Shown here one piece after another: positions 5,551 to 64,000 of a DNA stretch of 64,000 bases (the stretch's first letter is position 1; each line of letters begins with the position of its first letter). This DNA comes from a virus. Its lineage: Duplodnaviria; Heunggongvirae; Uroviricota; Caudoviricetes. The notes below the pieces were generated by a model. The model saw nothing but the letters and a program-made list of their open reading frames with translations, did not search any database and was not told the origin of the DNA. A program made the translations under genes and the position numbers. The stretch lies in the IMG/VR virus record IMGVR_UViG_3300033068_001655; one strand, 5' to 3'.

Positions 5551-7179
5551 TTATATTCCGTATCTTGTTCTTGTTGCGTTAAATATTGTTGTTATTTCTG
5601 ATTGGGTTAATGCGACATTATATTGTTTAACAATCCCAACTTTACCTAAAAACGACCCAGCATACCCGGTCCCAATTGTAATTGGTAAAGAACTGGCGGT
5701 TGCCGAGGAATAGGATGCCGTTGATTGGTTTATTAAAACACCATTTATATACCATTTAACTGTTTTAGTCGGTGTTGATAATTCTCTAACCAATACCACA
5801 AAATACCAGGTATTTAATGTTGTCATAACCGCACCTGAATTAACACCCTGATAAGGATTAGTGTTAGAACCCGCAGTCCCCCAATAATAATTCATTGAAC
5901 CATTGGTTTCATAAGTTATCGTCCCTTCACCTCCGTAAGCCTTGGCATAAAAATTTTGTCTTCTATCTCTTCTTTCAGGATAAACCCAAAAAACTAAAGT
6001 TTGGTCCCCGGTAACTTGCAAACTACTATTATTTGAGATACTAATAGAATCATTTGAACCATCAAATTTCCAACTTCCACCACCTTCACCAACATATTGA
6101 ACACCATTTAACATCGACCCATTATTATCATTTCCACTAATATCATAAGCGGTTGTTGGTGATGTTGCGTACAGATTGGTATTTTGAGCGTCTAATGACA
6201 GAACTAATCCGTCAGTTGGAATAAATCTATTGACTTCAGCGTAATAGTTTTGTAGAACTTCATCGGGTGATAATACTTTTTCATATACCCTATAACTATA
6301 TAAATCACCGTACAGTCTAACAGGGCTAGACGTAAACCATTCTCCTATTGTTGAGGTTCTAAAAGTTAAAAAGTCGGTATAAGTAAATGTTGATGAATAT
6401 ACATTAACCCCATTTACATAAATTATTACAACATTATCTAACCCAACTGTTACTGTTAAATTAAAATCCTCACCTATAGGGTATAAAGGGGTGTTTATAA
6501 ATACAATACCTCTAGTTTCACTTGTACTATCACTACCCGCTAACCAAACGCCACGATTTGGTAATAATCTAAATCTATTACCGGAATAACCTGAAATTTG
6601 TCTTCCATTAGAAGGTGAGATATCAATTGTGTTCAATGTTGCCGATAATGTAAATGGTATACTAACAGTAACTGACGATGATAACAGAATGTAATCATCA
6701 ACACCATCAAAAACTAATGAACCATTATTTTCACTATCATAACCAACACCATTTATTAAATTACCAACTTTACCACTCCCACTTAAATCTTTCCAAGTTG
6801 TTCCGGTTCTTGGATAAGATGACACAAATCCCGCATCCAAATTAAGGACCAATCCATCGGTAACAATTGATGGATAATTATTATTCAAAACGGTCATATT
6901 ACTTTGAGAATTGATCCAAACCAAAGCTTCAGGTACAGTTGAAACACTACCACCCAGTTGTTTAGTTATTGTAATTAAATCATTATCATTTTGAGGGGCA
7001 TATATAGAAGGTCCATTAGAAGTCTTATCTATATAGATCGTATATCCTCCATTTATAGGGGTTATGCCATTATAAAAACCAGTTAAATCGGTTGTTGTAC
7101 TATTTACACCAATATTAAAACCTCCTGATTTTATAGAGTTTGGTAATCTTACTGTATCAAATTTAACTATGTTACCCAT
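5551..7179 (-). CDS. Tandem LamG-like domain virion protein
   Basis: Two DGLVLxLDA...S..G..G.L.NG...FDG.DDY...YxNG...Y..xLxxxE repeats. Confidence 0.85.
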   Translation of the reverse strand: MGNIVKFDTVRLPNSIKSGGFNIGVNSTTTDLTGFYNGITPINGGYTIYIDKTSNGPSIYAPQNDNDLITITKQLGGSVSTVPEALVWINSQSNMTVLNNNYPSIVTDGLVLNLDAGFVSSYPRTGTTWKDLSGSGKVGNLINGVGYDSENNGSLVFDGVDDYILLSSSVTVSIPFTLSATLNTIDISPSNGRQISGYSGNRFRLLPNRGVWLAGSDSTSETRGIVFINTPLYPIGEDFNLTVTVGLDNVVIIYVNGVNVYSSTFTYTDFLTFRTSTIGEWFTSSPVRLYGDLYSYRVYEKVLSPDEVLQNYYAEVNRFIPTDGLVLSLDAQNTNLYATSPTTAYDISGNDNNGSMLNGVQYVGEGGGSWKFDGSNDSISISNNSSLQVTGDQTLVFWVYPERRDRRQNFYAKAYGGEGTITYETNGSMNYYWGTAGSNTNPYQGVNSGAVMTTLNTWYFVVLVRELSTPTKTVKWYINGVLINQSTASYSSATASSLPITIGTGYAGSFLGKVGIVKQYNVALTQSEITTIFNATRTRYGI

Positions 7180-7184
7180 TTATT

Positions 7185-7529
7185 TTAGTAATTAGTATTC
7201 TCATTTTGAATTTTTTCTAAAATGGTTGTATATTCGGCTTTTAGTGCTTCTCTCTTTTCTATTATAGACGGATCTATAGGTGTTCCATCTATAATAAATC
7301 TTTCTATTGCTTCTCTCATTCCTGGTATTTCTGATATTTTATCCGCATATATACATCTTAATTCAGAGATCAAAATTTCTAAATCTTCTACTGGGTTATT
7401 GTATTCTATAACAGTTCCACCAGAATTTAGAAAGTCTAAATAATCAATGTATGATGGATGATTTTCCTCCATTACTACTGGTATACTATCAAATAAGATT
7501 TGTCCTTTTTTATTTATTGTATAACTCAT
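7185..7529 (-). CDS. Putative tail-fibre assembly chaperone-like protein
   Basis: N-terminal NHPSYIDYLDFLNSGG resembles the N.DY..YL.W...G motif of tail chaperones. Lies between fibre-type genes. Confidence 0.4.
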   Translation of the reverse strand: MSYTINKKGQILFDSIPVVMEENHPSYIDYLDFLNSGGTVIEYNNPVEDLEILISELRCIYADKISEIPGMREAIERFIIDGTPIDPSIIEKREALKAEYTTILEKIQNENTNY

Positions 7530-7544
7530 ACTTTTACTTTATTT

Positions 7545-8798
7545 TTAATTACCAAAAAGGTTATTTTTTGTTCCGATTACACCATAATCTTTAAAAGAAA
7601 CACCACTTGCAGTATTTGTACTGATCCAAGTTACTGGATGTAAGTTCGAACCAGTTGAGTAGTCTGATGTTATAGTATTAGAAGTCATTGTCACTACACC
7701 ATTACTTGCAATTTTATATAACTCCATATTTATTGCAGCAACACCAGATATTTTATAAATTCTCATCCTATAAACACTTGTAGTATCAGTGCCTGAAAAA
7801 CCGGAACCCAAATCTAAAGAAGATGCAGTACCTGTATTATCATTCCATATAAAATAAAGATTTGTTGTATCTCTTAATTTTGCCACACCTATACTATTTA
7901 TTAGTGTTGTTGGTTCAACATTAGTTGGTGCAGTTGCTGCATATTGTGAAGATAATCCACAAAAAAATCTAAGTGTACTATTATTTGTTGTTATTCTAAA
8001 TCTTGATGATATATCAAAAGCAAAGTTTGTACCTGCTATTGATGCTGAAGTATAAGGATTACCATATCTTGCAGCAACAGATCCAATTGAACCAGCAGTT
8101 GTAAATTGAATACCCATAGGGTTTTCACTTAATATACCAACTGTTCCAGTTGTTAATATATTTGCGGAAATAAGTCTTAGTAGTGTATATGATGCATTAT
8201 CGGATGGTAACATATAAAAAAGTTGTTTTGCCATAAACCAGTAATTTAAAAAGTTTGTATCATCAATAGCTATTGACATACTTGGTAGTGTAAGAGATGA
8301 TGTTAGTGATAAACTCGTATTTACTGATGTTGTTGATAATGAATTTATTCCGGGTCCTGTTGGACCTATTGGACCATCGATTCCAGAAGTACCAGAGGTT
8401 CCAGAAGTACCAGAGGTTCCAGAAGTACCAGAGGTTCCAGAAGTACCAGAGGTTCCAGATGGTCCGGTTGGTCCAACAATAATACCAACTTGTTCTATTT
8501 GATAATCTATATAATTTTGAATATCTTTGTCAATTAAAAATGGAACTTTAGTGATTAGAGTATCAATTTGCTCTTGTAATCTAATTAAAGCAACTTTTGC
8601 TTCATTCTTACTTGAAAAACTTAGTAATATAACTTTTAATGACTTTAAACTTATTCTTAATATATTATTAATAGCTGCCGTATTTGTGATAACAAACGGA
8701 TCTATTGTATATTTAATATCATTAGTATCATCTAAAATTTTGATACTTTTATCAGATGAAGTAATTGGTCTTAAAAACTTATCGTAACTATAACTCAT
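7545..8798 (-). CDS. Virion structural protein with a short GPT/GTS collagen-like linker
   Basis: GPTGP(SGT)[13 protein letters not shown] linker between two globular regions. Confidence 0.65.
8383..8454. repeat. 18-bp tandem repeat x4 (SGTSGT)
   Basis: ccagaagtaccagaggtt repeated four times. Confidence 0.9.
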
Positions 8799-8812
8799 TA
8801 TTATATTTATTT

Positions 8813-9955
8813 TTATTCAGTTATTGTAAGGTCTATATGAACACCTTCTAATGTATTATGTGCAATATCAGAGAAATTAAATGTTACAGAGTAAGTACCT
8901 GGTAAATTAATAGTTGATAAAGTACTTACAGAGCCGCTTATAATTAAATTAGATGGCATCATAGACATTGTTCCATCTCTATTGTCACTTATTGTATAAA
9001 CTAATAAATCAATCAATGTAGGCTTATCTATGTAAGTTCCACTTGCAGTTCCATAGTCTAATATAGAAATTGTAGTAGAAAATGTTAGACCCATAGATGT
9101 ATCAGGACTATCAACAAAAGAACCATTAAACATAATAAAATCACCAGTTTGACCAACTTGATCATAAAAATAAACTATAGGATCTTCATTATCTGCGGGT
9201 GGATAATCTTCTGCAATATTAATTCCAGGATTTTCAATAACATAATTTAATAATGAGTGTGCTTGATAAGCATCATATTCTGTTAAAAATTGTAAAAATA
9301 TAGTTCCGTAACTAGCATCATCGATAATTAAAATACTACCTGTTTTCTCAATTGTTTCAATATTTGCAATTTCAAAATAAATTAAAGGTCTTACTGGAGT
9401 TCCTTTATCCATAATTTTAATAGATTCCCCTGGTACTTGTGATTGAATATCAGTCCAGTTTAAACCAACAAATGAGGTACTTGATTGATTTATTGAGTCA
9501 TTAAAGAATGTATATGTGTCATCAATAACACCAACCATAACATCTAATGATACCGGATATTTATCACTTGGATTTGATAAGTAAAGTTGTTTGATTCTAT
9601 TAGTTGAGTTACCAGTTAAAACCATCATCTGAGCCATTGGATAAACCTTGGCTAAATCATCGTAGTAACTCCAAGTAATGTAGTTATCCTCTTCAATTAC
9701 AGATTTTTGATTATAAACTGCCTTTATACAAAGAAAAGTAGCATTGTCTCCTAAACCTAAGTGGTTTAATAAGTAATTATTTTGTCCTGCTTTAAGTACT
9801 ATTCTACTTCTAAGAAGTTGTTTGTAAGGCATTCTTAAATCAGAAACAGTAAGTTTATCTACTGTATTTGATCCATCTATTGCTATGAAATCTCCTCCAC
9901 TTACTTTGATATATTGAGCACTAGCTCCAAATAATGATGATGCACATGATGCCAT
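8813..9955 (-). CDS. Putative virion structural protein
   Basis: 380 aa, beta-rich, in the structural operon. TAATATATA upstream. Confidence 0.55.
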   Translation of the reverse strand: MASCASSLFGASAQYIKVSGGDFIAIDGSNTVDKLTVSDLRMPYKQLLRSRIVLKAGQNNYLLNHLGLGDNATFLCIKAVYNQKSVIEEDNYITWSYYDDLAKVYPMAQMMVLTGNSTNRIKQLYLSNPSDKYPVSLDVMVGVIDDTYTFFNDSINQSSTSFVGLNWTDIQSQVPGESIKIMDKGTPVRPLIYFEIANIETIEKTGSILIIDDASYGTIFLQFLTEYDAYQAHSLLNYVIENPGINIAEDYPPADNEDPIVYFYDQVGQTGDFIMFNGSFVDSPDTSMGLTFSTTISILDYGTASGTYIDKPTLIDLLVYTISDNRDGTMSMMPSNLIISGSVSTLSTINLPGTYSVTFNFSDIAHNTLEGVHIDLTITE

Positions 9956-13955: not shown

Positions 13956-14365
13956 TATTTGTTTATCATTTTAACGACTTCCATAAAAGCTCGTTCTGTC
14001 CCTTTAATTACATATTCATATAATCCAAACGCATTTACTTCTGTTGGTGATTCGTCATAAAACTTTATATTATTTAGAATCTCATCAATATCATTTCTGA
14101 ATTTTAAGTAAAAGTCATAAATATCAGAATCATTTATAAATCCTTCAACTTTAACATCTTCAGGGTTTTTCTCAAATGACTCAATAAATGATTTTAGCTC
14201 ACCACCGTTTTTTTGGATAGTGTTTTCAATCATTTTCTGAACTTCTTCCATAACTTCTGGATACTTAGAGTTATCTAAAGTTTTAATACCTTCTGGTGTA
14301 GTTTGCTCAGTTGGTTGCTGTACTTCCTCAGCTTCGTTTATAAATTGTGAATATCTTTTTAACAT
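13955..14365 (-). CDS. Acidic hypothetical protein with capsid-targeting-like N-terminus
   Basis: Starts MLKRYSQFINE. Confidence 0.7.
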   Translation of the reverse strand: MLKRYSQFINEAEEVQQPTEQTTPEGIKTLDNSKYPEVMEEVQKMIENTIQKNGGELKSFIESFEKNPEDVKVEGFINDSDIYDFYLKFRNDIDEILNNIKFYDESPTEVNAFGLYEYVIKGTERAFMEVVKMINK

Positions 14366-54903: not shown

Positions 54904-56427
54904 TTAATATCTAAATTGGTATTTTACATTAGGAGGACCAATAGGTGTTATTATTTGTCTTTTATAAACTTTAAAACTTCTATTTGCCCAATAACTTTGT
55001 GGTGATCCAAGTGTTAAGGTTGATTGTGTAAAGAATCCAATAACATCATTATCATCACCATCTATAATTTGTGTTAAATCAGGATAACTTGCATCATACA
55101 TAAAATATAAGTATTGTCCCGTAGATCCTGTTAGATAAAGTTCTTTATCTCCCTGTGTTTCAACTAATTTTGTTAGTGATATTTGAGTTAGATTACTAAA
55201 CGAACTCACTGAGCTTACTCCATAAAAATAAGGAATAATACCTTGTATGAAAGTACTTGCGGTTGCATTTTTTGTACCATCAGTAACACTAATTGAGAAA
55301 ACAATTGGGTCTTCACCTAATTGGTTATTTGGTATTTGACCAGTAGAACTTCCAGAAACAGTGATGTGATCAGTGGTTGTAATTGCATCAACAACTGCCG
55401 GTGTCATATTTGTCAAACTTGCAATTTGTGTTGCATTAGTTCTCTTAGTAATTGTATAATCGAGTATAACTGTAGGATATGTTCCCAGCTCATAATAATT
55501 ATTATTAGTAGTTATAGTACATAAAGGACCTAAATAAGGATAAAGTATTCTTCTTAAAACTTCTGAAATAGCAACATTGTTAAATGTTGTACCTATTGGT
55601 ATTCCACCAAATGGTCTAGGTGTATAATCGGTTGAATTTAACTCTAATGAATAACCATTTACATTTGTAGGATTTCCGTATAATGTTAGTGTCTCACTAG
55701 AAGTACCAATTGTACTTAAAACTGGAAGAGTTAGTTCCTCCCATTGTACTCTACCATTTCTCCAAACAAAAGTTTTACTTTCTAGTCCAGATGAAGTAGC
55801 ACTTTCTATAGATGTTGGTAATTGAATTGTATTTAATGAAAATGTTCCTTGTAAATAATCATTTATATTTTCATAATTTCTAATGTTTACATTACCTACT
55901 TTAGCAACAAAGTCAATAGATAAAGATTCTGTGGCACCAGAAACAAATTCACTTTGAATAAATGGTGCAACTGTATATAATCCAGTATTCTTACCAGATA
56001 ATATAGACATTCTAGTTATTGTATTTGAAACTGTATCTGGTTTAGTATTAAATAGGAAAATATCCACGTCACTATCAAGTAATTGAGTGTCAGACATAAT
56101 ATCATGTGAATTATCATATGATTGAGTACCCGAATAGGATCTTTTACCTATAAATAATTTCTTTTTAATATCTCTATCATTTGGATCGGTTGCATCTAAA
56201 CCAATATATCTTTCAGTATTACTAGAAATAGATGATGCAGTTGATGTTTGTTTAAAAGGAACACTAGACCATAAAGATAAAACTGCGTTACGTATATCTT
56301 TAGGATCGATAAGTTTATCTACGTTATCCTTTAAGGTTAAAAGTATATCATCAAAATTACTTTGTATATGAAGTGGATAACTATTCGCTTCTGTAATCTG
56401 ACCATTGTTTATACTGAATGTTCCCAT
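54904..56427 (-). CDS. Virion structural protein, paralog A
   Basis: Aligns along its length with 56434-58044 (TFSIN.GQ.TE, I.P.D.R.A.LS.W, NGYSLE, L..ILYPY..P). Confidence 0.7.
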   Translation of the reverse strand: MGTFSINNGQITEANSYPLHIQSNFDDILLTLKDNVDKLIDPKDIRNAVLSLWSSVPFKQTSTASSISSNTERYIGLDATDPNDRDIKKKLFIGKRSYSGTQSYDNSHDIMSDTQLLDSDVDIFLFNTKPDTVSNTITRMSILSGKNTGLYTVAPFIQSEFVSGATESLSIDFVAKVGNVNIRNYENINDYLQGTFSLNTIQLPTSIESATSSGLESKTFVWRNGRVQWEELTLPVLSTIGTSSETLTLYGNPTNVNGYSLELNSTDYTPRPFGGIPIGTTFNNVAISEVLRRILYPYLGPLCTITTNNNYYELGTYPTVILDYTITKRTNATQIASLTNMTPAVVDAITTTDHITVSGSSTGQIPNNQLGEDPIVFSISVTDGTKNATASTFIQGIIPYFYGVSSVSSFSNLTQISLTKLVETQGDKELYLTGSTGQYLYFMYDASYPDLTQIIDGDDNDVIGFFTQSTLTLGSPQSYWANRSFKVYKRQIITPIGPPNVKYQFRY

Positions 56428-60539: not shown

Positions 60540-61988
60540 TTAAAGTTGAATAGCTTTAATTTCATTGAAAAGAGCTTTCTTATCCATTTCCATCATCTTC
60601 ATTACGTCGAAAACTTTATCGGAAAAACCAGTCAAAGCAAATACATTGTTTTCTGGAAACTGCATTGTGCCTAGTCCGGCAAGATCCCAAGAGTAAACAT
60701 AAGGATTTGCATCATACGTTTTCTTATATTGTTTGAACTCAGTAGTTGGACTTGTGTAACCAACCCATCCTTGCATATCTGAAAGGATAACAACTCTATC
60801 ATACTTTTTATTAGCAGTTGTAAAGATAGATTTGAAGTTTGTTCCACCTCCAGAATATCTAAAACTATTTCTAATAGTCATAACAGAATCCATTGGATTG
60901 TATGACTTATAATCAGATCTTGTTGCAAATGTTAAAACATCTGCGTTGTTAGCTTTTGCTAAAATTGCACCAAATAATGAAGCAATTTCAGATGGTCTAC
61001 CACTCATAGATCCAGAAACGTCCATAACAACTAATGTATCACCATCAAACTTAGGAACATTACACATAGAAACTTCTAATGCTTGATTGATAGCAACTAA
61101 AATATCTCTAACTTCTTTTGAAGAACCCATTTTACTGATTTCTTCATATGCAGTTGCAAATCTGAATGGTAAAACTCTTGACTTAGAAATCAATCTTTCG
61201 TCTACAAGTAATTCACAAGCAACTGGAACTAACTTAGGAGCTTGGCTTATAATGTTTCTAAGGTTTCTTAAAAGAGCAAAATAACCAATCTTTCTTGATG
61301 TAAGAAGTTCTGTCCAAGCATCCGCTTTTAATTGTGCCAAATCTTCTTCATTCTCAGCAACTTGTCCTGCTTGAGAAAGTTTAGCTTCCCAAGTATCAGT
61401 GTTTTTTAATTCACCTTTAACAAGTAATTCTAAAGCAGTCTTATTTTTATCAGTTGGAACTGGGTGTACAATGTTCACTAAGTCAACTAATTTAAGATCT
61501 TTATTTTTACCAGAGTATTTTGCCAATTGGTAAGCATCAAACTTATCAAAAGCTTTAGCAAATCCTTTTTTCAAAGAGTTTGGAAACTTTGGATTGTCTT
61601 TACTTGTTTTATGCATTAAATAGTATGACATAATCTCAGTCATATCATCAACACGAACTACAACTTTGTCATAGAAGTTTTTACCTAATTCAGTACCTTT
61701 CAACTCTGATGTTAATTCACCAGCTAAAGCGTGAGTAATACTTCTCATACCAAATTTATCACGAGCATAAATTGCTGCTTTTGCTGCAAATTCTGGATCT
61801 ACTTTCTTAACTAAGTTTCTTAAATCTTTTAATGTATCATTACCAGATTTGTAAAATTGATCATTTACAAATGAAGTTAATAACATAGATACTAAAGCTA
61901 ATTCATTTGTTTGAGAATAAGCTTCTCCACCTGCTAAGTTAGTAGTTAGTGTTTTAGGTTCTTTTACTGTTGTGTTAAATTTACTCAT
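60540..61988 (-). CDS. rsr: Ro60/Rsr TROVE-domain RNA-binding protein with vWA domain
   Basis: NLAGGEAY, AAIYAR...GMR, FDAYQLAKY, DLV..VHP, TWE..LS, ALLRNLRN, SRVLPFRF; vWA DVSGSM MIDAS, GGTN, SDMQ. Confidence 0.92.
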   Translation of the reverse strand: MSKFNTTVKEPKTLTTNLAGGEAYSQTNELALVSMLLTSFVNDQFYKSGNDTLKDLRNLVKKVDPEFAAKAAIYARDKFGMRSITHALAGELTSELKGTELGKNFYDKVVVRVDDMTEIMSYYLMHKTSKDNPKFPNSLKKGFAKAFDKFDAYQLAKYSGKNKDLKLVDLVNIVHPVPTDKNKTALELLVKGELKNTDTWEAKLSQAGQVAENEEDLAQLKADAWTELLTSRKIGYFALLRNLRNIISQAPKLVPVACELLVDERLISKSRVLPFRFATAYEEISKMGSSKEVRDILVAINQALEVSMCNVPKFDGDTLVVMDVSGSMSGRPSEIASLFGAILAKANNADVLTFATRSDYKSYNPMDSVMTIRNSFRYSGGGTNFKSIFTTANKKYDRVVILSDMQGWVGYTSPTTEFKQYKKTYDANPYVYSWDLAGLGTMQFPENNVFALTGFSDKVFDVMKMMEMDKKALFNEIKAIQL

Positions 61989-62036
61989 GAGTTCTAATTA
62001 TATTTATAGTTATACTTAAAATAAGTATAAAGTTTT

Positions 62037-62195
62037 TTATATATCTTTTGTTTTATCAATTATAACTTTCTCTATAAAGGAGCTATAATTTTCTATACCA
62101 TTTTCTTCACAATACTTAACCCACATTTCATATACTCTTGGATCAACTGAAAATGATATTGTTTTCTTTTTATCCTTTTCCTTCTTTAATTTCAT
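62037..62195 (-). CDS. Ribbon-helix-helix protein, missing from the ORF track
   Basis: Manual translation MKLKKEKDKKKTISFSVDPRVYEMWVKYCEENGIENYSSFIEKVIIDKTKDI (52 aa). Confidence 0.7.
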   Translation of the reverse strand: MKLKKEKDKKKTISFSVDPRVYEMWVKYCEENGIENYSSFIEKVIIDKTKDI

Positions 62196-62333
62196 ATCTA
62201 TAAACTATTTTTTTGTTTCAATATAACATATATATTAAATCATTAAAATTGTTGAAAAATAATTAAAAAATTATTGTAAAATTATTGTTTTTGGCTTTGG
62301 TTATTTAATATATACTAAAAAGAAATAGATAAT

Positions 62334-62516
62334 ATGAAAAGAAAAGTTAAAATAAAAAAAGTGAATGCGTCGATAACTCTTGATCCGAAGGTTCTTGAAA
62401 TAGTAGATTCTAGTTTTTCAAATAGATCAAAGTTTATAGAAAACATAATTATCGAAGAGCTATGTAAAAATGAACTCTTTAAGAATGAATTAAAAAAACT
62501 AAAAATTATTATATGA
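62334..62516 (+). CDS. Ribbon-helix-helix protein
   Basis: ASITLDPKVLEIVDS.FSNRSKFIENII. ATGA overlap with the HNH gene. Confidence 0.75.
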   Translation: MKRKVKIKKVNASITLDPKVLEIVDSSFSNRSKFIENIIIEELCKNELFKNELKKLKIII

Positions 62517-63136
62517 AAGTATGTATAGAATGTAATCTTGAGTTAGATGATGTATTTTTCAAAAAATATACAAGAAAAAGATGTATAGATTGTTATAGAA
62601 ATTATTACAGAGAATATGAGAGTAAGAATAGAGAAAGAATAAGAAACAGACAAAGAGAATATCAAGCGAAAAATGTTTCAAGTTTACAAGAAAAAAGAAA
62701 AAAATATAGAGAGATAAATAAGGATAGAATAAAAGAAAATTATATAAATTTTATAAATAAAAATCCAAACTATAATACTCTATATTCTAGAAAAAGATAT
62801 AATAATGATGATTTATTCAGGCTTATTAGAAATTATAGAAATCTAATTTCACTTGCCTTTAAGAATTCAAAATTTATAAAATCTGCTAATAGTGAAGAGA
62901 TTTTGGGTTGTACATTTGAAGACTTGAAAAAATACCTGGAAAGTAAGTTTGAGCCTTGGATGACTTGGGAAAATAGAGGTCTATATAATGGTGAGTTTAA
63001 TTATGGTTGGGATATAGATCACATCATACCTATATCATCTGCTAATTCTGAAAATGATATTATAAAATTAAGCCATTATACTAATTTACAACCTCTTTGT
63101 AGTAAAATAAATAGAGAAATTAAAAGAAATAATTAA
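62513..63136 (+). CDS. HNH homing endonuclease, family copy 3
   Basis: CIEC...CIDC; WDIDHIIP...HYTNLQPLCSKINR. Confidence 0.85.
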   Translation: MKVCIECNLELDDVFFKKYTRKRCIDCYRNYYREYESKNRERIRNRQREYQAKNVSSLQEKRKKYREINKDRIKENYINFINKNPNYNTLYSRKRYNNDDLFRLIRNYRNLISLAFKNSKFIKSANSEEILGCTFEDLKKYLESKFEPWMTWENRGLYNGEFNYGWDIDHIIPISSANSENDIIKLSHYTNLQPLCSKINREIKRNN

Positions 63137-63169
63137 GACCAGAATTACTAATTAGTAACTCTGGTCTTA
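63134..63169. terminator. Hairpin between the convergent HNH gene and the ncRNA transcript
   Basis: taagaccaga...tctggtctta inverted repeat. Confidence 0.7.
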
Positions 63170-63180
63170 TTATAATTTAT

Positions 63181-63383
63181 GCAAACAAGAAAACTAGCCT
63201 AAGCGTCACAAAGAATTCTACATAAACTCTGCCGATGTTGAAGTGACATCTCACTCATGCCCTATTAAGGTGGAATCTGATACCTGACTTTCTTGCCCGA
63301 AGGGAGCAGCCGTAGCCTGACTTTGCTCGTTCATAGATATGTAATTAATGCATCGAAGTATCTTAGAACTTTACTATGTTTGC
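63181..63383 (-). ncRNA. Candidate Ro60-associated (Y-like) structured RNA A, 203 nt
   Basis: Ends pair (GCAAACA/UGUUUGC; UCUAAG/CUUAGG). GC-richer than its surroundings, cUUCGg tetraloop, no ORF. Confidence 0.65.
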
Positions 63384-63400
63384 TTTATTTTAATAATAAA

Positions 63401-63474
63401 ATCAGAGAAATTTATTAGAGAGGTTGTTTAGCGATACCAAAAATTGCGATGTAGCTCTCTAATTTACTACTGAT
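63401..63474 (-). ncRNA. Candidate Ro60-associated structured RNA B, 74 nt
   Basis: AUCAG/CUGAU and UUAGAGAG/CUCUCUAA stems with the same linker motifs as RNA A. Confidence 0.6.
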
Positions 63475-63592
63475 GTTTATGTTATAGAAAACAATTAAAA
63501 AAAGTTTAATCTATTTTTAATTATTTTTATGTATATAGTAACCTTTGAAATTTCAATTTTTTCCAAGGTGGATTTTTTACAGAAGTAATTTT

Positions 63593-64000
63593 TTAAGATG
63601 GAAGTTTCATATACCTTCTTTTATCTTTTAATAGTTTATGGTTAGTTACTGAACCTAATATAAATTTTCTTAGTCCTTTATTTTCTATATTTGTTCCATC
63701 TCCTTTATGAATTAAAATGAGTGAACTTATTGGTATCGGATCAGGGGTTGCTATAAAAACATTTTTACCTATTGGACCATTAACATCTATATACCATTTG
63801 TTAGTAATATTTTTGGTATTTATAGCCCATACATCCCAATCATATCCTGCGTCAAACCATTCTTCAGGTTCTTTGGTATTAGCGGCGAAAACAGCTTTAA
63901 CTTTTTCATTTCCGTATGCATTAGCCCAGTTACCTCCAGTTGGAAGTATTCCATTAGATTGTATAAAATCTCTAAATTTAGGATCAGCTATATGATAAAC
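63593..64000 (-). CDS. Partial ORF (runs off the window end), ART/Tpt1-like fold candidate
   Basis: Manual translation VYHIADPKFRDFIQSNGILPTGG...KAVFAA...DVWAIN...IPISSL...MKLPS*. The YH...I...GIxP pattern is ART-like. Confidence 0.5.
   Translation of the reverse strand, partial: VYHIADPKFRDFIQSNGILPTGGNWANAYGNEKVKAVFAANTKEPEEWFDAGYDWDVWAINTKNITNKWYIDVNGPIGKNVFIATPDPIPISSLILIHKGDGTNIENKGLRKFILGSVTNHKLLKDKRRYMKLPS

Follow-up and report, generated by a model that had tools for sequence, protein, structure and literature searches.

What are the two noncoding elements that accompany the Ro60 gene of the IMG/VR virus record IMGVR_UViG_3300033068_001655 (Caudoviricetes), and are they Y RNAs? The stretch of DNA analyzed, 64,000 nucleotides (nt) in length, is called the window throughout. 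A reading of its letters (the sequence-only reading) had described a phage Ro60 gene with two dedicated structured noncoding RNAs and suggested that these may form an uncatalogued class. Our computational analysis leads us to favor, with a probability of roughly 0.78, a ribonucleoprotein of the Y RNA kind, formed by the phage Ro60 with both elements, which we name RNA1 and RNA2. The gene, the RNAs, and the hairpin that follows them are located as listed.

60540-61988, minus strand: Ro60/Rsr-type gene encoding a TROVE plus vWA protein of 482 amino acids (aa); Pfam, translation, and full-length match to phiLo Ro60
63400-63473, minus strand: RNA1 (74 nt), putative minimal Y-like RNA; match to covariance model R1 (built on RNA1), covariation, and a minimum free energy (MFE) z-score of -2.29
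63181-63383, minus strand: RNA2 (203 nt), putative Y-like core plus large module; element table of 29 homologues, pair counts, RNAalifold, and an RNA1-derived model
63134-63169, minus strand: intrinsic-terminator-like hairpin closing the RNA unit; terminator scan (16-pair stem, 1 site versus 0.3 expected)

RNA1 and RNA2, found at the positions given by the sequence-only reading, contain no open reading frame (ORF), lie upstream of the Ro60 gene on its strand, and are followed by the terminator-like hairpin. More than 40 contigs of related phages keep both, and there the Ro60 gene comes directly after them. For this giant phage, the nearest database relative is the uncultured phage genome LR745206 (634,780 bp); in it and in IMG/VR contigs with Ro60 proteins that are 67-95% identical, both RNAs and the terminator directly precede the Ro60 start codon. 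The sequence-only reading had proposed collecting the TROVE loci of related phages and building a covariance model, and this showed the elements to be conserved and covarying: of 42 TROVE loci, 40 contained exactly one R1 match, without exception upstream of the gene and on its strand, and the sole R1 match in the window was RNA1 itself (73.3 bits, E = 7e-14). A scan of IMG/VR with the 3' motif of RNA2 gave one match in each of 24 contigs, and the motif adjoins the Ro60 gene in all of these that could be judged except L043. The position and conservation of the RNA elements with the Ro60 gene are far beyond chance. Together with the strong covariation described below and the terminator of their own, this linkage in more than 40 loci bears out the claim of two dedicated structured RNAs. 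The crAss-like relatives point, by analogy, to a Bacteroidota host.

The two RNAs are built on one core, which consists, in order, of P1, a single bulged U in the 5' strand, helix H, a 3-nt bulge in the 3' strand, P2 of 9-10 bp, and a single-stranded WUACUUCG. The pairing ends noted by the sequence-only reading correspond to P1.

RNA1, all on the minus strand:
63470-63473 with 63402-63405: P1 (4 bp), pairing of the ends UCAG/CUGA
63469: bulged U
63464-63468 with 63406-63410: helix H
63411-63413: 3-nt bulge
63455-63463 with 63414-63422: P2
63447-63454: motif CUACAUCG

RNA2, all on the minus strand:
63377-63383 with 63181-63187: P1 (7 bp), pairing of the ends GCAAACA/UGUUUGC
63376: bulged U
63371-63375 with 63188-63192: helix H
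63193-63195: 3-nt bulge
63362-63370 with 63196-63203: P2
63354-63361: motif AUACUUCG
63208-63255: 3' domain, from an alignment of 18 sequences
63242-63255: hairpin A
63234-63237: CAUC, pairing with the hairpin A loop GAUG in an H-type pseudoknot
63208-63232: hairpin B, with a conserved 13-nt loop

Helix H spans five positions (AGYGA/UUNCU) and amounts to 2+2 bp around a conserved pyrimidine mismatch, the central position being nearly always mismatched in RNA2 (1 of 20 paired). The many G-U pairs of RNA1 and RNA2 identify the minus strand as the transcribed one. With filters off, a broader RNA1-derived model (R2) recovered RNA2 over its full length at 63180-63383, with a 133-nt insert (15.9 bits, E = 0.003 in 421 nt); the other R2 match in the window, 55167-55227, is at chance level (E = 0.49). 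A core common to RNA1 and RNA2 is strongly supported by covariation. An archaeal-type bulge-helix-bulge splicing motif was considered for the core and rejected, since the geometry is 1-nt bulge/5 positions/3-nt bulge rather than 3/4/3.

The inner stem of RNA1 covaries in an alignment of 14 homologues; over the full structure, 92% of cells are paired, and 0 of 500 shuffles were as good. When the 34 R1 matches were aligned to the model, 93% of cells paired, 16 of 19 pairs carried compensatory changes, and again 0 of 500 shuffles did as well, with a covariation score of 0.455 compared to 0.149 in shuffles and at most 0.11 with the partners slid. This alignment is fitted to the model, which favors the structure, and an independent MAFFT alignment agrees.

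For RNA2, 20 distinct sequences were compared. All cells of P1 are paired (140/140) even as six of its seven positions vary, the variants including GCAAACA/UGUUUGC, GCAGACA/UGUCUGC, GCAAGCA/UGCUUGC, ACAGACA/UGUCUGU, GAGGACA/UGUCCUC, and ACAAAUA/UAUUUGU; P2 shows exchanges among U-G, G-U, A-U, and G-C pairs. The 3' domain is paired in 95.7% of cells of its 18-sequence alignment, with seven pairs showing double changes, a result that 0 of 500 shuffles reach. Compensatory changes occur in three of the five pairs of the pseudoknot helix, whose variants are GAUGG/CUAUC, UAUGG/CUAUA, AAUGG/CCAUU, GAUGU/ACAUC, GGCCA/UGGCC, and GGUCA/UGACC. RNA2 is 203 nt long in the window and 218-293 nt in relatives (29 homologues tabled). 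The module, which separates the motif from the 3' strand of P2, measures 130-220 nt and depends strongly on subclade, differing even between the window and L002. The GC content over RNA2 (63200-63350) is 43-45%, compared to about 25% in the flanks. Two observations made on the 5' strand of P2 are recorded here in their own right: by eye, in many relatives, AUAGUU can pair locally with AACUAU 25-35 nt downstream as an alternative to P2, and in the window (63340-63372) the corresponding local alternative is AGUUC with GAAC.

Y RNAs are modular, joining a 5'/3' stem that carries the Ro60 site to a second, effector module (10.1101/312249), and what Ro60 primarily recognizes in them is one bulged C in the stem, a feature retained in bacteria (PMC4030889). 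RNA1 and RNA2 show the same traits: a 5'/3' stem, a single bulged nucleotide, a conserved helix, and a second module (the 32-nt loop of RNA1 and the 133-nt structured module of RNA2). The earlier statement that they lack a canonical Y RNA helix did not hold up, since the ends of both form a stem that has one bulged nucleotide and a short, conserved helix. Like the metazoan and Deinococcus Y RNAs (Y_RNA, Yrn1), they close with an end-to-end stem, carry the single bulged nucleotide in a conserved helix, and continue into a large loop or module (PMC4030889; 10.1101/312249). They differ in the helix itself (GGUCCGA/UUGACC versus AGYGA/UUNCU in the window clade), in the bulge, which is U in the window clade, and in length, RNA2 being two to three times longer. 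The bulge is C in L028, a GC-richer relative with three tandem cores before its Ro60 gene.

More than 250 bacteria and phages encode, next to Ro60, RNAs of the YrlA type that contain a tRNA-like module (PMC4201824). R2 located cores upstream of the Ro60 genes in L026, L027, L031, L034, several contigs from metagenome-assembled genomes, csAssE-Sib, and cr111_1. The R2 match of csAssE-Sib at 996-1130 (E = 4e-7) encloses a full-length match to the Rfam YrlA model (RF02553) that is below the gathering threshold (28.5 versus 69 bits). In its alignment the YrlA consensus cggCgaAUGCuugg stands opposite AAGGUGAUACUUCGG, which places P2 plus AUACUU at the site of the proposed Rsr-binding motif GNCGAA(N)G. 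The core is homologous to YrlA-like elements and, as described below, to tRNA-like ones. The window RNAs resemble YrlA and YrlB (RF02553; PMC4201824) in lying beside Ro60, in numbering several per locus, in their predicted co-transcription, and in a layout that would join a Ro60-binding stem to an effector module. In csAssE-Sib a YrlA-like tRNA mimic lies within the core, whose AUACUU aligns with the YrlA consensus AUGCUU, and RNA1, like YrlB, is a small partner without a tRNA-like domain. Unlike YrlA, the window RNAs have no T or D arm, and the RNA2 module, at 130-220 nt, is not tRNA-like. Other members of the core family do have T and D arms (L028, L031, csAssE-Sib, cr111_1, and the copies in tRNA arrays).

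The absence of a YrlA tRNA-like T arm, which the sequence-only reading had reported, was confirmed: ARAGORN called no tRNA in the window, and the Rfam YrlA and tRNA models gave no match to the RNAs at E ≤ 10. The Rfam YrlA model does pick up weak YrlA-like elements in BRock and csAssE-Sib, and because it can see such weak relatives, its failure to match RNA1 or RNA2 reflects a genuine lack of T and D arms. Rfam found no family for RNA1 or RNA2, either at the gathering threshold (whole window and 19 relatives) or at E ≤ 10 (the RNA locus and L009), and returned only chance snoRNA and terminator-like matches. The suggestion of an uncatalogued class therefore stands insofar as no Rfam family covers these RNAs. 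It fails as a claim of a separate class, since a helix of the Y RNA type is present nonetheless and the same core encloses the sub-threshold YrlA match in csAssE-Sib.

The closest precedent is Thermus phage phiLo (Yrl1, Yrl2; PMC12135203; PDB 9KOP, 9L5Y), whose Ro60 was shown to bind a pair of Y-like RNAs encoded upstream of it and, together with these, the PNPase of the host (PMC12135203). As in the window clade, a phage Ro60 gene is accompanied by two Y-like RNAs just upstream in a phage without a PNPase of its own, phiLo recruiting that of its host. The phiLo RNAs differ in being defined by a CGAA motif and are unmatched by the core model, whereas the signature of the window clade is WUACUUCG, known from sequence; RNA2 of the window also bears a far larger, pseudoknotted module. 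A phage Ro60 accompanied by a pair of Y-like RNAs upstream has been described before (phiLo, 2025; PMC12135203; PMC4201824), and the window RNAs are a variation on this known partnership. From these comparisons, we conclude that RNA1 and RNA2 are most probably divergent Y-like RNAs of the Y RNA kind, not a separate class, and that RNA2 appears to carry a new, non-tRNA-like module where YrlA has its tRNA mimic.

Several results weigh against this conclusion. Characterized Y RNAs measure 80-130 nt; RNA1 (74 nt) falls slightly below this range, and RNA2 (203 nt) lies well above it. At E ≤ 10, Rfam found no Y_RNA, YrlA, or tRNA match in 61900-64000 and no YrlA match in L009. The motif GNCGAAN0-1G is literally missing near the 5' end, where RNA2 has ...UAAGAUACUUCGAUG and RNA1 has ...AGAGCUACAUCGCAA; these stretches hold the position of GNCGAAN0-1G in the YrlA alignment, with different letters. 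Beside the Ro60 genes of phiLo, Vibrio phage phiKT1024, Streptomyces phage BRock, and PhiCrAssBcn17, R2 gave no match, so that the core is clade-specific and not universal. Cores also occur far from TROVE inside tRNA arrays, where a factor other than Ro60 could read them. Finally, the single-sequence fold of RNA2 is no better than that of shuffles (MFE z = +0.79), and the case for RNA2 consequently comes from comparison.

The last of these results, together with the lack of an Rfam family, would suit an intergenic sequence conserved for reasons other than RNA function, such as a protein-binding DNA site or the remnant of a mobile element. This explanation is effectively refuted by dozens of compensatory changes, including those in the pseudoknot, across diverged primary sequences; the strand-specific G-U pattern, the GC spike, and the dedicated terminator also speak against it, and we give it next to no credence.

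The cores in tRNA arrays came from an R2 search of whole related genomes, which found extra copies at a distance of 100-150 kb from Ro60; they share the strand of the tRNAs that they abut. In LR745206 these lie at 342958-343030 (L074 1001-1073), 369032-369174 (L075 1001-1143), and 388894-389002 (L076 1001-1109); further copies are found in L077, L078, and L079 (each 1001-1118). Some are minimal, and others surround tRNA-like bodies, for which the ARAGORN call is tRNA-Ile(tat) or tRNA-Leu(taa). Next to TROVE, core stems enclose an annotated tRNA-Tyr (1166-1238) in csAssE-Sib (L064 1138-1269) and an annotated tRNA-Gln (917-992) in cr111_1 (L081 889-1021). The third core of L028 (2852-2979) likewise encloses a tRNA-like body (Rfam tRNA, 52 bits; ARAGORN, tRNA-Tyr), and its UACUUCG motif stands where the 5' acceptor strand would be. 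The tRNAs annotated or called beside TROVE in these crAss-like and other phages (csAssE-Sib, cr111_1, L028) may be tRNA-mimic modules of Y RNAs rather than ordinary tRNAs. The array copies support action in trans and suggest a link with tRNA biology.

The cores that abut or enclose tRNA-like sequences in the arrays, those around the annotated tRNA-Tyr and tRNA-Gln, and the replaced acceptor strand of L028 would also be expected if the core were a handle for a tRNA-processing or other RNA-handling enzyme. Its proximity to Ro60 would then reflect shared regulation or substrates, and the RNAs would be mere clients of Ro60. We consider this unlikely, as the core accompanies TROVE in every locus of this protein clade and, in the Rfam YrlA model, aligns with the end that binds Rsr, and as a bulged stem is the known design of a Ro60 site (PMC4030889). 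Moreover, YrlA RNAs are substrates of tRNA enzymes while bound to Rsr (PMC4201824), so the two readings are not exclusive. A separate observation from the same set of loci is that BRock (L065 3579-3742) carries an Rfam manA RNA match near the threshold (49.7 versus 55.2 bits), between tRNA genes downstream of TROVE.

The layout of the locus bears on whether the RNAs act in trans or in cis. In the window they are not immediately upstream of the Ro60 gene; about 1.15 kb with genes on the opposite strand intervenes.

61983-63134, no strand assigned: mobile cassette between the RNAs and the Ro60 gene; comparison with L001, L002, and L043
63499-63509, minus strand: conserved box TTAAACTTTTT, candidate promoter element; upstream alignment of relatives

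The stretch 61983-63134 stands in place of 45 nt in L002 (Ro60 95% identical) and 48 nt in L001, which marks the block as an insertion. It holds ORFs of 52 aa (62037-62195, minus strand), 60 aa (62334-62516, plus strand), and 207 aa (62513-63136, plus strand); the last overlaps the 60-aa ORF and has a weak Pfam HNH match (E = 0.0035). A twin cassette occupies the same site in L043 (6034-6836), with HNH proteins at 60% and 60-aa ORFs at 98% aa identity, and the HNH part is multicopy in LR756502. In L043, a 103-kb fragment estimated to be 18% complete, the RNAs are intact and there is no TROVE gene; the RNAs and cassette are followed (6958-9150) by a 730-aa DEAD/ResIII helicase and by a methylase in place of Ro60. 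An HNH gene adjoins RNA2 in the window, and a group I intron or HNH-associated RNA was therefore considered as its identity; this was ruled out, as relatives carry the RNA without any HNH gene. The insertion would have placed the Ro60 gene of the window behind the upstream region that the cassette itself brings.

In nearly all relatives, the RNAs and the terminator (GACCAGA...TCTGGTC plus a T run that lies about 40 nt before the Ro60 ATG) directly precede the gene and leave scant room for a separate promoter, so expression of Ro60 there probably needs read-through of the terminator. Both elements could then be a cis-acting leader or attenuator of the Ro60 mRNA, in which Ro60 or another factor binds the structured leader and controls read-through, and the RNAs have no role in trans. 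The window argues otherwise, since the cassette and its opposite-strand genes uncouple the RNAs from the gene and both RNAs are intact; the RNAs of L043 persist without TROVE, the same core recurs in tRNA arrays 100-150 kb from TROVE, and no alternative pairing with the terminator was seen. We judge a purely cis-acting leader improbable. An added autoregulatory role is possible and could coexist with one in trans. The dedicated terminator and the intactness of the RNAs in the window and L043 support action in trans.

The Ro60 protein itself is the complete TROVE and vWA protein, on the minus strand, that the sequence-only reading had described. Its TROVE (HEAT-repeat) domain matches Pfam PF05731 (E = 2.5e-18, 66.9 bits, cutoff of 23), and its vWA part matches VWA_CoxE (26.8 bits, cutoff of 26.4); the match to vWA_Ro60 is weak and below the cutoff (21.1 versus 27.7 bits). 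The vWA part contains DVSGS, a MIDAS-like motif (MIDAS being an adhesion site that depends on metal ions), which aligns with DVSGS of phiLo Ro60. The latter (9KOP/9L5Y) is the closest solved homologue (E = 8e-25, residues 13-475), and human Ro60, Rsr (2NVO), and Xenopus (1YVP) gave weaker, partial matches. TROVE genes were found by tblastn in 98 phage records, so a phage Ro60 gene by itself is not unusual.

The Ro60 gene is broken in three relatives. In L024 (3463-4164), and also in L025 and L032, it is interrupted after about residue 158 by about 700 nt that contain a 224-aa ORF with an HNH motif, both Ro60 parts being in one frame. Rfam found no intron family in the three interrupted genes, and either the gene is split or the insert is an intron encoding a homing endonuclease, both being possibilities.

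How the ribonucleoprotein might work can be sketched from these data. RNA1 and RNA2 would be made as one transcript of about 345 nt, running from a promoter near 63500 to the terminator at 63134-63169, and this would be cut in the 12-16-nt AU-rich spacer or kept whole as a tandem RNA. The box near the proposed start (TWAAACTTTWT) is kept upstream of RNA1 in relatives and occurs seven times in the window compared to 2.6 expected, the other six copies being at 14058, 25217, 30605, 31998, 32531, and 39443; it may be a phage promoter element. A sigma-70 promoter scan found fewer sites in the window than in shuffles. We infer that Ro60 would dock on the core of each RNA, the core corresponding to the Ro60-binding module of Y RNAs. 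RNA1 would serve as a bare platform, acting as a gate, competitor, or titrator of the Ro60 surface, while the pseudoknotted 130-220-nt module of RNA2 would tether Ro60 to an effector. Five related genomes, of which three are at least 95% complete, yielded no RtcB (PF01139) or PNPase core (PF01138), and the window ORFs of 380-590 aa include no RtcB, in agreement with the sequence-only reading. The effector would consequently be a host enzyme or an unrecognized phage protein, and probably the former, for example, an exoribonuclease such as PNPase. The decoy and RNA-repair roles that had been proposed for the window RNAs are speculation.

Ro60-Y RNA particles range from bacteria to humans, and only the tRNA-like module and the PNPase-binding loop are understood as their effector domains. 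The clade described here provides a strongly covarying core that joins into one family Y-like RNAs that are minimal, tRNA-like, or large and pseudoknotted, which is material for an Rfam entry that present annotation misses. RNA2 adds a new structured module whose partner could be identified. The core also suggests that some "tRNAs" beside the TROVE genes of crAss-like phages, and some elements in the tRNA arrays of huge phages, are Y RNA modules. A broader idea, which we put forward tentatively and which may well be wrong, is that the core serves as a portable Ro60-docking handle and that phages of Bacteroidota (huge phages, Crassvirales) have grafted it onto a bare loop, onto tRNA mimics in tRNA arrays, and onto the RNA2 module, the last being a non-tRNA-like effector-binding domain for a partner outside the known Y RNA ones. 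If true, such a handle would connect the Ro60 of a phage with that phage's own pool of tRNAs, for instance in tRNA surveillance or shielding during infection.

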